The position numbers and the translations under genes were made by a program. This document shows positions 12,542-47,108 of a stretch of DNA of 64,000 nucleotides, piece after piece. Each line of letters opens with the position of its first letter. Within the stretch, counting starts at the first letter, position 1. The notes under the pieces are model-generated. The model did not search any database, was not told the origin of the DNA, and saw nothing but the letters and a program-made list of their open reading frames with translations. Origin of the DNA: Promethearchaeota archaeon (lineage in GTDB: Archaea; Asgardarchaeota; Hermodarchaeia; Hermodarchaeales; Hermodarchaeaceae); NCBI GenBank assembly GCA_048938385.1, contig JBHLMG010000001.1:160001-224000 (forward strand), in the 5' to 3' direction.

Positions 12542-12887
12542 GGACGGGAGCCCCGACGGTTGACAACCCTTCCTGACGCCGTGCTCACAGCCAGGTCTCG
12601 GACCCGGATCTCAGAAGCATCTACAGTACAGGCTTACGCTGCTCCCTCCCGGGTCTCGCTGGGTTCACCTGTTTAAGGCGATTCAGCCCTTCCTACGAAA
12701 AGCCTACCGCCACCAGCGATCCTCTGAGGCGGATCGTCACAGCCACGAACAGCGAGTCGTACACCAGGTCAGAAAGCCTAACATCGGCATTCAGCCTGCC
12801 TTATAGAGCATTTGCAGAACAGGGGAGCCTTAGCCAGCCCGTAGCGGTGCTGCGGGGCTTCTAGCCCCCCGCCTAGGCTCACCGTCC
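12542..12887 (-). ncRNA. ffs: Archaeal SRP (7S) RNA, with extra hairpin in Alu helix 3
   Basis: Terminal helix GGACGG..GAGCC/GGCTC.CCGTCC; helix 8 motif GACCCGGGAGGGAGCAG; GGGGGG..TCCCCTG helix 3. Confidence 0.9.
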
Positions 12888-17291: not shown

Positions 17292-17810
17292 GTGAGGCGA
17301 TTCAAAACGCAAATGGCAGATCTTTTACACAGAGCAAGGGCTATCGCTAATTACCAATTTAATTCACCCATAGGTCACCTACTATTCCCTGCCGAATGTA
17401 CGGTTGAGGTGTCGAAGAAAACTGGAAATCTTCGTCGAATTCTCTCCGGTCCTGTTGTTTTAGCAACAATTCGTGCATACGATGGGCGTATCGTGCTTAC
17501 CTTCGCGGGGGCTCAACGGCTCCATCAGCTCTGTCCATTCCCCCAGCATCGAGTGGTTGTGGATTCGGATGTTGCCGCTTTTATTAAGGAAGGTCGTACT
17601 GTGTTTGCCAAACATGTGAAAGAAGTGGATTCTCAGCTTCGCGCAGGGGATGAAGTACTCGTTGTGGACGAAAAGGATGCCCTTTTAGCGGTGGGCAAAG
17701 CTCATTTAAGTCCACGGGAAATGCTTGAAATTTCAAGGGGTGTTGCTGTGAAAACACGCCATTCGAAAGGATCACAGAAAACACAGCAACAAGAAACCGC
17801 TCTATCCTAA
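17292..17810 (+). CDS. PUA domain protein (archaeosine TGT C-terminal-like)
   Basis: ANYQF, GRTVFAKHV, RAGDEVLVV, GVAVKTR. Confidence 0.82.
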   Translation: MRRFKTQMADLLHRARAIANYQFNSPIGHLLFPAECTVEVSKKTGNLRRILSGPVVLATIRAYDGRIVLTFAGAQRLHQLCPFPQHRVVVDSDVAAFIKEGRTVFAKHVKEVDSQLRAGDEVLVVDEKDALLAVGKAHLSPREMLEISRGVAVKTRHSKGSQKTQQQETALS

Positions 17811-22460: not shown

Positions 22461-23321
22461 CTAATTCACTTGGACATCGAGAACGAAATGCGTTAACTTG
22501 GGGTTGTAAGTCTTAATTGCACGGGTCTGTAGAAGTTCTACATGCCTGCTCATTGAATGGGCGATATCCTGTAACATTGAAAAAACTTCAAAACCTCTAT
22601 CTTGTTTTGAACTGATCTCATGGATGTGCAAGATACCAGTAGGAGACACACACGAAAGTCCCTGTTTGAGGTAGCGAGTAGTGCCTTGAATCAATCCCAT
22701 TAATACACGGTTCGCTTGTCCTTGCGCAATTTTTGGTGCTAACTGGCTGGTATCACCAAAATGAGGCTTAACAAAATCGGTTACTTTGTTTGCATCAATG
22801 TTCATGCAAAGATAACGATATGCGTCTGGATTCCATTCTATCGCATGAATTATCTTTGGTCGTGCATGAACCGCTATGGGTAAGGCAAATTGCCCTATCC
22901 CTGCAAACATATCCACTACGAATTCCCCTGCTCCAAGTTTACTCATCCGAAGCCGTTCCGCCTTATTTCCAACAGAGAACATGACTTTCATCGGGTCTAG
23001 ATGAAAAACCACCTTATTCTCTCTAAATACCGTATTCGTATTTTCAGAACCAGCAATTAGTTCCAGGGCGGGTCGGCGGTAGGGACCTGATATCGCATCA
23101 GTCCTTTTCAAAACTGATTGAATTCTTGAGTCGTACTTTAACACTGCTTGTCCAATTTGGCTTTGGAAACTGACAATGGAAGGGTGCAACCAGAGAATTG
23201 CGACTGTTCCAAGCCTTCTCAATCGCCGAGGTAGTAACCTCGGGTCAATTTGCTTTTGCAACTCCTCCTGAAGGAACTGATGAAATGGTAAACGTTTAGG
23301 ATTTGTGATAGTCGTCACCTG
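22461..23321 (-). CDS. Trm5/Tyw2(Taw2)-family SAM-dependent tRNA modification enzyme
   Basis: KVMFSVGNKAER, VVDMFAGIGQF, EWNP; start uncertain (near 23321). Confidence 0.82.
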   Translation of the reverse strand, partial: QVTTITNPKRLPFHQFLQEELQKQIDPRLLPRRLRRLGTVAILWLHPSIVSFQSQIGQAVLKYDSRIQSVLKRTDAISGPYRRPALELIAGSENTNTVFRENKVVFHLDPMKVMFSVGNKAERLRMSKLGAGEFVVDMFAGIGQFALPIAVHARPKIIHAIEWNPDAYRYLCMNIDANKVTDFVKPHFGDTSQLAPKIAQGQANRVLMGLIQGTTRYLKQGLSCVSPTGILHIHEISSKQDRGFEVFSMLQDIAHSMSRHVELLQTRAIKTYNPKLTHFVLDVQVN

Positions 23322-23344
23322 AACGGAACCAATGGAAGAGAAAG

Positions 23345-23575
23345 GGTGGGGTCGTGCATGCTCTGCAGATCGATACACTAACGCCCCATCATCATTGGTA
23401 GGCGTAACGCCGTTGTTCCTCCGACAGGTCCTCTCTTAATATGTCGAGCGATGTGAACATTACACGACCCAGCGCTGAAGTGTGGACATCGTGGGTTGCC
23501 CCCACAATCACTTCTTGACGACTCGTCATAGATCAAGCAGGAGCCTGTCACATGCCGCGTAGCCTTCAACGCTGC
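23345..23575 (-). ncRNA. Unassigned structured RNA domains downstream of H/ACA hairpin
   Basis: Two adjacent 10-bp long-range helices (23573-64/23480-71; 23470-61/23358-49), several hairpins, K-loop-like AATGATGA. Confidence 0.65.
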
Positions 23576-23580
23576 TCAAG

Positions 23581-23644
23581 TGTGCCTGTTATTTTGCACG
23601 AATCTTCATAAGACGGGTCTTCAGATTCGTCCTCGATCACAGCC
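23581..23644 (-). ncRNA. Box H/ACA guide hairpin (predicted target: 23S rRNA U equivalent to E. coli 2496)
   Basis: K-turn CTGA/TATGA in upper stem, pocket ATCGAGG/GCAAA, ACA box 14 nt below pocket; TATA-like TTTTAAGA upstream. Confidence 0.8.
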
Positions 23645-23699
23645 ATTATCCTTTCATTGCAAAACTCAAATCAGCAATGGTGGTTCTTAAAACCTTCCA

Positions 23700-24194
23700 C
23701 TACGGGCTAGTTACTTCGTGATAGGTGACCCGTCCATCCCGGTCAATTAATCCTGCTCGAATTCGGGTTGACGATATTGAAATATGGTCCTCTGCCATTA
23801 CCATAGTCAATACAGCGATATGGAGGAGTGGAAGTCCCTTATCTTTTCGAATTTCGTTGATTTCCTTTGCGACGGGACAAGTTTCTTCACTCACTACAAT
23901 GAGTTGAAGTTCTGGCATAATGATGGCAGGTCCGTGTGGATCATATAAGGGTTGAATGGTGTATCGTCCCTTGTAGCTTTCAGAATCGAGCCATCGTTTG
24001 AGTTCAGATTCTCGTTCCTCGTAACTGGCTATTTTTTCCCAGTCCGGTTTGTGTTTAATCATTTCTTGGGTTGTTAAACCAATAAGCACTCTTTTTCCCA
24101 ATTCAAACGCTCGACGGAGGAGTGTTTTGTGTCCTTTATGTAGTTGGTCAAAAGTGCCTCCGATGGCGACCCAATTGTAGTGCTTTTTGGACAC
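23700..24194 (-). CDS. coaD: Phosphopantetheine adenylyltransferase (archaeal/eukaryotic type)
   Basis: GGTFDQLHKGH, IVVSEET, ISSTRIRAG. Confidence 0.92.
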   Translation of the reverse strand: MSKKHYNWVAIGGTFDQLHKGHKTLLRRAFELGKRVLIGLTTQEMIKHKPDWEKIASYEERESELKRWLDSESYKGRYTIQPLYDPHGPAIIMPELQLIVVSEETCPVAKEINEIRKDKGLPLLHIAVLTMVMAEDHISISSTRIRAGLIDRDGRVTYHEVTSP

Positions 24195-24273
24195 GACGCA
24201 GTCCTCATGCCATGCTCTAATCTTCTGTTGAAAAAGCTTTACCACGAGCCAAGTAAGAGCGAATATTCGCGGT

Positions 24274-25380: not shown

Positions 25381-25485
25381 CTTGCGTCACTAATAATATG
25401 GTACTGCCGGAACGGAACAAGTATGGAATAAAAACCTTTGCGTATGGTTAATCCCGCTCACGCATAGAAGACAAGGAAAAAGAAG

Positions 25486-25603
25486 TGGCGCAGTTCACAC
25501 TTTTCCCGACACCTCTCGGACATCAGTACTCAGGGCGACGAAGCCGGCTTAACTTCCGGGATCTGACGAGACCGGGTGTGACCCAGCTTCTATGACCGCG
25601 CCA
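25486..25603 (-). rRNA. rrf: 5S rRNA (stand-alone)
   Basis: GGCGCGG..CATAG, CCCGG..CCCGGAAGTTAAGCC, AGTACTG, GGGAA, terminal helix. Confidence 0.95.
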
Positions 25604-31562: not shown

Positions 31563-31695
31563 CCCGGCGTAGCTCAACCTGGTAGAGCGTCTGGCTGTAG
31601 GTTAACACCGCACCCTGAGCCATCTTGGCAATGATTCGGTGCCAACCAACGCAGATACCAGATGGTTCCTGGTTCAAATCCGGGCGCCGGGACCA
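31563..31695 (+). tRNA. tRNA-Tyr(GTA) with 56-nt canonical intron (31601-31656)
   Basis: C1:G72, CT-GTA-G, CTGT/GCAG helix. Confidence 0.93.
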
Positions 31696-31746: not shown

Positions 31747-31854
31747 GCCCGTTTAGTGTAGCCAGGTCTATCATCTGGGACTGTCAATGGTCTATACTCG
31801 ATATAGGCCAATGGATCTCCTAGGACTCGGGTTCAAATCCCGGAACGGGCGCCA
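31747..31854 (+). tRNA. tRNA-Asp(GTC) with 30-nt canonical intron (31787-31816)
   Basis: CT-GTC-A; BHB CTGT-CAA..ATGG-ATC. Confidence 0.93.
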
Positions 31855-39605: not shown

Positions 39606-39914
39606 ATGGATGCTGAAACCGCAATCCGATTGGCTGTGAAATCAGGAAAAACCATCTTTGGTGCTCAACGGACCCTACATACGCTTCGAACGAGTTCTCC
39701 ACGAGTCGTAATTCTCGCTGCAAACGCTCCCTCTGCAATCAGAGAAGAAATAAATACACTTGCTAAAGCAAATGAAGTGCCGATTCACAACTACCGAAGC
39801 AATAGCTGGGATCTCGGGCAAGTTTGTGGGCGACCACACATGGTAGCAGCTATGGTCGTCCTAGATCCTGGAGATGCTGATATTGCTGCCTTAATAGGGG
39901 CTGGCAAGAAGTGA
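39606..39914 (+). CDS. rpl30e: Ribosomal protein eL30
   Basis: VKSGK..FG, LGQVCGRPH, DPGDADI. Confidence 0.93.
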   Translation: MDAETAIRLAVKSGKTIFGAQRTLHTLRTSSPRVVILAANAPSAIREEINTLAKANEVPIHNYRSNSWDLGQVCGRPHMVAAMVVLDPGDADIAALIGAGKK

Positions 39915-46994: not shown

Positions 46995-47108
46995 TGGCGC
47001 CGGGTAAGGGATTCGAACCCTTGCGGCTCGGAAGCCACAGGCTGCCTTGGGGTGGTAACAATACCTGACCACTCAAGGCCCGCGCCGTAACCACTTGGCT
47101 AACCCGGC
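46995..47108 (-). tRNA. tRNA-Ser(TGA) with 28-nt canonical intron (47044-47071)
   Basis: CT-TGA-G; BHB CTTG-AGT..CAAG-GCA; long variable arm. Confidence 0.93.

Follow-up and report, generated by a model that had tools for sequence, protein, structure and literature searches.

The window analysed here, a stretch of 64,000 nucleotides from a Hermodarchaeia (Asgard) archaeon, probably carries on its minus strand, from about 23660 to 23340, a non-coding RNA gene of ~320 nt that would specify a multi-unit box H/ACA guide RNA. Its first unit is a short hairpin that had been noticed in a first-pass annotation made from the sequence alone. That observation is confirmed, and the interpretation of the hairpin as an H/ACA guide is supported by every sequence-level feature of an archaeal box H/ACA motif and by the predicted pairing with 23S rRNA. 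The extent of the RNA proved to be different: instead of the stand-alone 64-nt sRNA that had been proposed, the hairpin opens a longer conserved RNA as its first unit. Comparison of guide and rRNA sequences supports a pocket in unit 1 that is directed at the U equivalent to E. coli position 2496, in the peptidyl-transferase centre (PTC) region of domain V. This site and this kind of guide have been known since 2002-2008, and the Asgard member is the new part; no description of Asgard H/ACA guide RNAs was found in the literature searched, which by itself does not prove that none exists.

Anatomy and conservation of the first hairpin

Unit 1 extends from 23643 to 23581 on the minus strand, and the lower stem, pocket, upper stem, K-turn and ACA box at 14 nt that had been claimed for it were all found in place. 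The lower stem consists of 5 bp between GCUGU (23639..23643) and ACAGG (23585..23589); its bottom position is one G.G mismatch in the host genome, and three of its five pairs show two-sided changes among genus-mates. Above it lies an internal loop of 8+8 nt, formed by the 5' pocket strand GAUCGAGG (23631..23638) and the 3' pocket strand GCAAAAUA (23590..23597). The upper stem joins ACGAAUCU (23623..23630) to AGAUUCGU (23598..23605) in 8 bp and is capped by a K-turn (23606..23622), which is composed of GA at 23622-23621, the cap hairpin AGACCCGUCU at 23620-23611, a UAU bulge and a second GA at 23607-23606. The ACA box (23583-23581) is situated exactly 14 nt from the upper stem.

It was reported that productive archaeal guides contain ten stacked layers from the pocket-closing pair to the second G.A pair, with the ANA box 14-15 nt from the pocket-closing pair; these rules were drawn from Pyrococcus, Pyrobaculum and crystallised particles (PMC4652768). 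The geometry of unit 1 fits them, as its GA stem is made up of eight Watson-Crick pairs plus G.A and A.G (10 layers) and its ACA spacing is 14 nt, which also falls within the 14-16 nt 3' of the pocket-closing pair by which the ANA box of a canonical motif was defined here. The canonical guides of Pyrobaculum likewise have a short lower stem, comparable to the 5-bp stem of unit 1 (PMC4652768). The features of a canonical archaeal box H/ACA motif that sequence can show were all found, namely a covarying stem-pocket-stem-cap, the K-turn placement, the ANA spacing, two-strand complementarity and the partner proteins.

For the single hairpin sequence, the fold energy showed a modest gain over shuffles (z = -1.95). 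No Rfam family, including HgcG (RF00064), matched positions 23300-23900 at the gathering thresholds or at E <= 10. Since the single-sequence fold is weak and there is no Rfam match, the case for the hairpin was built on comparison.

The host assembly (2.48 Mb, 51 contigs, 89.8% complete) belongs to the class Hermodarchaeia, and the nearest named relatives of a protein neighbouring the RNA come from 'Candidatus Hermodarchaeum yapensis' and other Hermodarchaeota MAGs. The homologous intergenic stretch is present in 13 of 14 genus-mates. In the alignment of the 14 genus-mates, 95.7% of cells pair, vs 31-52% with the partners slid, and the observed covariation score was matched by no shuffle. The lower stem varies among these genomes as GCUGU/ACAGC, GCCAC/GUGGC and GCCAU/AUGGC, and the upper stem also shows covariation. 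The sister genus has an entirely different upper stem, UCAGGUCU/AGACCUGA, with CGAGG, GCA(A/U)A, the GA/UGA of the K-turn and ACA all kept.

The homology search in related genomes that had been suggested as a check establishes the hairpin as a real conserved structure. A covariance model detected it in 18 of 19 genomes of the whole class, the searches at family, order and class level having given one identical set of 19 genomes. When a phylum-wide sample of 151 genomes was searched with a second model, 19 genomes of five other families matched (E 1e-10 to 3e-4); at the threshold applied outside the class (E <= 1e-3), these 19 genomes are a lower bound, so that at least 19 other-family genomes carry the element. 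One further match (G053, E = 0.002) was rejected as a false positive, and it looks like coding sequence. In the other families the stem sequences are unrelated yet complementary, again with compensated swaps in the upper stem, and the pocket CGAGG/GCAA, the K-turn and ACA are fixed. The strand CGAGG is invariant phylum-wide; GCAA has exceptions only in two sister-genus genomes, both of which read GCAUA. The GA and UGA of the K-turn are invariant in the class and phylum alignments, ACA is present in 33/33 aligned sequences (18 from the class and 15 phylum-wide, 3 being common to both sets), and the spacing from upper stem to ACA is 14-15 nt in every lineage aligned. Guide strands that stay fixed while the stems change with compensation are the signature of a guide RNA.

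The predicted 23S rRNA target and its known guides

Neither 16S nor 23S rRNA gave a model match anywhere in the host assembly. The exact sequence TTGCTACCTCGAT is absent from the host's own genome, and near matches occur at chance level (37/38 vs control 35/37). Since the host assembly lacks a 23S, the target was read from class-mates, three of which contain the complementary sequence and the U that had been anticipated. The 23S of two genus-mates (G006 and G008) and of one sister-genus genome (G015) reads GGCUUGC-UU-CCUCGAUGUCGG, and the stretch that holds the predicted target U is CUUGCUUCCUCGAU. The 3' pocket strand pairs through GCAA with UUGC, immediately 5' of the target U, and the 5' pocket strand through AUCGAGG with CCUCGAU, so that UU is left unpaired in the orientation that an H/ACA guide requires. 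The first-pass annotation had given the target as (U)UUGC-UA-CCUCGAU. Its pairing with both pocket strands stands, and the wording needs correction for this class, which reads CUUGC-UU-CCUCGAU: the second unpaired base is U and not A, and the fifth base on the 3' guide side faces C.

In a strict two-strand scan of the 16S and 23S loci of G006 (27 kb), this was the only 11-bp site (4+7 bp) that is Watson-Crick throughout. When the annotated rrl gene of E. coli was aligned, the segment CCUCGAUG, which directly follows UU in the class-mate 23S, began at position 2498. The target U thus aligns with E. coli position 2496, a C in E. coli, and the position given in the first-pass annotation is correct. 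Elsewhere in Asgard archaea the 23S reads CUUGC-U(A/U)-CCUCGAU, with UUUGC in G020 and CUUGG in G025. The host genus forms only 4 bp on the 3' guide side, the fifth position being A.C; lineages in which the guide reads GCAAG gain the fifth pair with the target C, and in the two sister-genus genomes with GCAUA the pairing is reduced to 3 + 5 bp. A compensatory change was sought in G025, where the 23S has G for C beside the target U, and no convincing guide was found in that genome.

How such a particle would work can be outlined by analogy with reconstituted Pyrococcus particles. L7Ae would bind the K-turn, with Cbf5-Nop10-Gar1 on the ACA box and the lower stem. The pocket strands would then pair with 23S rRNA (GCAA with UUGC, (AU)CGAGG with CCUCG(AU)), and the first U of the unpaired UU, the equivalent of E. 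coli 2496, would be placed in the active site of Cbf5 and converted to pseudouridine. The particle assembly and the modification itself are inferred, as are the roles of the two further units described below. A quite improbable alternative is that the H/ACA-type RNA has a different substrate, be it a tRNA, an mRNA or another sRNA, or that it serves as a folding chaperone of pre-23S rRNA without modifying it. Archaeal guides with several targets that include tRNAs and crRNAs have been described, such as sR435 of S. islandicus (PMC11077068), and the target scan covered rRNA loci. However, the invariant pocket bases coincide exactly with those pairing to the invariant 23S segment, and the 2496-equivalent site is a proven H/ACA target in Pyrococcus, both of which favour modification of 23S rRNA as the function of unit 1.

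Pseudouridine at position 2588 of P. abyssi 23S rRNA was seen by CMCT-RT (Muller et al. 2008, PMC2377435), and motif 1 of the P. abyssi RNA Pab40, whose counterparts are Pf7 and Afu-4 (HgcG in Rfam), makes Psi2588 in vitro (PMC2377435). In the published numbering, P. abyssi position 2549 is the counterpart of E. coli 2457, 2672 of 2580 and 2697 of 2605 (PMC2377435), a constant offset of 92 that equates P. abyssi 2588 with E. coli 2496. Likewise, yeast Psi2826 corresponds to E. coli 2457 (PMC11077068), and the resulting offset of 369 equates Psi2865 of yeast 25S rRNA, which is guided by snR46 (PMC5699541), with E. coli 2496; the equivalence to yeast Psi2865 that had been proposed is upheld by these published offsets. 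Unit 1 had thus been read correctly as an archaeal guide whose site is shared with eukaryotes, but the idea itself is not new, as motif 1 of Pab40 already guides Psi2588.

Motif 1 of Pab40/Pf7/Afu-4 (RF00064) resembles unit 1 in several respects: it belongs to the archaeal box H/ACA motifs, contains both an L7Ae-binding element and an ANA box, shares the target at E. coli 2496 and comes first in an RNA that has three motifs. According to the published description it has a K-loop and a 9-bp lower stem, whereas unit 1 has a K-turn and a 5-bp lower stem. The yeast snR46, together with the equivalent vertebrate H/ACA snoRNA, has the rRNA position 2496 in common with unit 1, a likeness drawn from the numbering; in contrast to unit 1, snR46 is a eukaryotic two-hairpin H/ACA snoRNA that has an H box and no K-turn and binds Nhp2 instead of L7Ae.

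In the archaea most closely related to eukaryotes, the Asgard RNA provides a concrete pair of guide and target, at a site of the PTC region that is also pseudouridine in Pyrococcus and yeast. This supports an early origin of the modification at the 2496 equivalent and of RNA-guided targeting to this site. With the covariance models obtained in the analysis, the RNA can be annotated throughout the phylum.

Genus-mates have heavily interrupted rRNA genes (16S and 23S in G006, 23S in G008), and the 16S model spans 3.6 kb in G006. One of the 23S insertions in genus-mates lies at the helix 69-71 junction, and its position differs between two contigs of one assembly.

The longer RNA and its second and third units

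For about 230-255 nt past the ACA box of unit 1, the sequence has the properties of a conserved structured RNA: it is better conserved than the flanking genes, and its substitutions ignore codon positions. All Asgard lineages inspected have this extension after the hairpin, and consensus folding of 13 class members revealed compensatory changes in helices throughout. It forms two more hairpin domains, each with a K-turn, an ACA box and an enclosing outer helix, which are read as H/ACA units 2 and 3. The possibility that the downstream RNA is RNase P was considered and rejected, as RNase P RNA was located elsewhere in 15/15 genus genomes (14 above the family cut-off, and one fragment, in G010, below it). 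A TATA-like element TTTTAAGA at 23692-23685 suggests that the transcript starts near 23660.

The 5' leader of the RNA, GCAAUGAAAG (23651..23660), resembles a box C of the (R)UGAUGA type and is found phylum-wide. Just past ACA, at the junction to unit 2, lies CUUGAGC (23574..23580), a box D-like sequence with which the leader could form a K-turn. The box C-like leader motif is AAUGA, and low-GC lineages have the canonical AUGAUG plus CUGA; the D-like box after ACA occurs as CUGA, CUGGA and CUUGA. The leader and the bases past ACA can thus form a C/D-type K-turn that would clamp unit 1. A box C/D sRNA is defined by boxes C (RUGAUGA) and D (CUGA) in a terminal K-turn, a C'/D' pair and a guide of 10-12 nt upstream of D/D'; here both a C'/D' pair and a guide segment are lacking, and it is the H/ACA hairpin itself that precedes the D-like box. 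The composite RNA Pab21/snoR9 of Pyrococcus carries an H/ACA motif and box C/D elements on one transcript (PMC4652768), as unit 1 is flanked by a C/D-like K-turn. Pab21 has a complete C/D guide downstream of its H/ACA motif, whereas the Asgard RNA has a clamp of C-like and D-like boxes only, in which a methylation guide is not evident.

Unit 2 (23472..23572, minus strand) comprises a 9-bp outer helix around an H/ACA-type hairpin with a lower stem and a K-turn-like GA/UGA, and its helices covary. Its 3' strand AACCCA (23497-23492), followed by ACA at 23483-23481, is the complement of 23S CUGGGUU at E. coli 2579-2585. The motif AACCC(A)(G) is found 14-15 nt before ACA in nearly all lineages, with AUA in two genomes. 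Given the complementarity to E. coli 2579-2585, U2586 would sit in the pocket of unit 2; the 5' strand pairs weakly, forming 2-5 bp with CC(G)UC. In P. abyssi numbering, the true target of motif 2 in Pf7 and Afu-4 is expected at position 2678, whose equivalent is pseudouridine in Haloarcula, fly and mouse (PMC2377435).

Unit 3 (23340..23470, minus strand) is enclosed by the outer helix GGGUCGU/ACGACCC and contains a covarying K-turn stem, CCUGUCG/UGAUGGG, and a pyrimidine-rich 3' end. In the consensus fold, the outer helix and the hairpin within it take up 23470-23349. In another family the model of unit 1 also matches unit 3 (E = 0.011). Two strands of unit 3, AAGAGAGG (23438-23431) and GUUAGU (23382-23377), are motifs conserved phylum-wide. 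GAGAGA is complementary to UCUCUU, and GUUAGU to A(G)UAAC; these two 23S segments flank the loop of helix 69 (GAGUAAC-UAUGA-CUCUCUUAAGG), and their pairing leaves five bases unpaired, U1915 and U1917 among them. The helix 69 guides of haloarchaea are likewise non-canonical (PMC4652768). In particular, sR-h45 of Haloferax volcanii, also a multi-hairpin archaeal H/ACA RNA, serves the equivalents of E. coli 1915 and 1917 from a single pocket, and more than two of the target bases stay unpaired there (PMC4652768). The unusual pairing predicted for unit 3 thus has a precedent. The differences are that sR-h45 has two hairpins and other domain V sites, and that the 2496 equivalent is not among its known targets.

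In the strict two-strand scan of the rRNA loci of G006, no canonical target was found for units 2 and 3, and none of the quality seen for unit 1; on the 5' guide side, their pairing is weak or would require 4-5 target bases to stay unpaired. From the complementarities described above, the predicted targets are E. coli U2586 for unit 2 and U1915/U1917 in the loop of helix 69 for unit 3. The order of these targets is that of the euryarchaeal RNAs, in which motif 1 is directed at the equivalent of 2496, motif 2 of Pf7/Afu-4 has the expected target P. abyssi 2678 (E. coli 2586) and motif 3 of Pab40 targets helix 69 (PMC2377435). A three-for-three match in equal order between the Asgard RNA and Pf7/Afu-4/Pab40 is suggestive of common descent, though not proof of it. 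We therefore put forward, as a tentative proposal that falls somewhat short of probable, that the ~320-nt RNA is the Asgard counterpart, possibly an ortholog, of Pf7/Afu-4/Pab40, with targets at 2496, 2586 and helix 69 in that order and with a previously undescribed clamped architecture. An extra outer helix or C/D-like K-turn surrounds each unit of the Asgard RNA, unlike in Pab40. If the proposal is true, core pseudouridines of the large subunit already had a tripartite guide before Euryarchaeota and Asgard archaea separated, and the eukaryotic guides for these sites (e.g., snR46) descend from pieces of such a tripartite RNA.

Gene neighbourhood, expression and partner proteins

The RNA occupies a gap on the minus strand between a cytidylyltransferase-like gene (23700-24245) and a gene for a Trm5/TYW2-like methyltransferase (22461-23378), both of which are also on the minus strand. 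In other lineages the RNA is kept while its neighbours differ: Trm5 and DUF1512 genes are found next to it in some, and aminoacyl-tRNA synthetase, RIO kinase or Roadblock-like genes in others, with some neighbouring genes on the opposite strand. That the neighbours change and the RNA stays indicates an independent RNA gene of ~320 nt. The order DUF1512 gene, RNA, Trm5/TYW2 gene is common to the host class and one other family (G058) and is absent in the remaining lineages.

The position directly upstream of the methyltransferase gene, on the same strand, in the host class and one other lineage would also suit a cis-acting leader or attenuator of that gene, and the same region contains two open frames on the minus strand, of 63 codons (23378-23569) and 45 codons (23392-23529), that could be taken for small genes. 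Both possibilities together are considered highly improbable. In other families the RNA stands beside unrelated genes, some of them on the opposite strand, which is not what a leader of the Trm5/TYW2-like gene would show. The substitutions in the open frames are not codon-like, long stretches show no variation at any of the three codon positions, and neither frame has a Pfam match; a protein-coding or mRNA-intron reading of 23378-23569 was ruled out by the substitution pattern and the lack of a family match. The two small ORFs are thus probably not genes, and the reading as a guide RNA gene removes both from the annotation as spurious.

Contigs of 193-293 nt that lie on 23359-23644 at 88-92% identity, and that come from relatives of the host, were detected in four wetland metatranscriptome runs, which carry four study codes and possibly belong to one campaign. 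These contigs end within the RNA region, and three of them cross the ACA box of unit 1, extending to either side of it by more than 31 nt. As assembled sequences they carry no strand, ends or abundance and may derive from DNA carry-over, and the uncovered parts (<23359, >23644) are uninformative about the ends of the transcript. The contigs are supportive, not decisive, evidence for expression of the region.

These contigs also bear on whether unit 1 might be a free-standing single-hairpin H/ACA sRNA of ~65-80 nt, transcribed alone or cut after ACA, with the downstream 250 nt forming a separate RNA. Many archaeal H/ACA sRNAs are single hairpins that end at ACA (PMC2377435), and ACA at 23583-23581 could be a 3' end. 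On the other hand, the crossing of ACA by the contigs speaks for continuity. Every lineage examined has the downstream domains right next to the hairpin despite the differing neighbour genes, neither a T-tract nor a promoter-like element lies between them, and a conserved helix links the 5' leader with the bases just past ACA. A free-standing sRNA is therefore regarded as unlikely, and unit 1 is best explained as part of the multi-unit guide RNA.

The four proteins expected in an archaeal H/ACA particle, Cbf5, Nop10, Gar1 and L7Ae, are all encoded in the host assembly and scored above the curated cut-offs. The cbf5 gene (C4:12543-13540) lies outside the window, and its model matched in two pieces, 5-40 and 40-322, with ~38 nt between them. 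This split match looks like a bulge-helix-bulge mRNA intron. An intron of this kind is known in the cbf5 of Crenarchaeota.

Several other RNA genes are present in the window, where the intervals 12545-12884, 25485-25603, 31563-31692, 31747-31851 and 46998-47108 hold SRP RNA, a stand-alone 5S rRNA and several tRNA genes. Several of the tRNA genes give Rfam matches of 105-130 nt and are intron-bearing, and ARAGORN detects four of seven tRNAs. The window of the guide RNA also contains, on the plus strand, a second gene of the L7Ae family (39612-39887) and a PUA-domain-like match (17550-17762).
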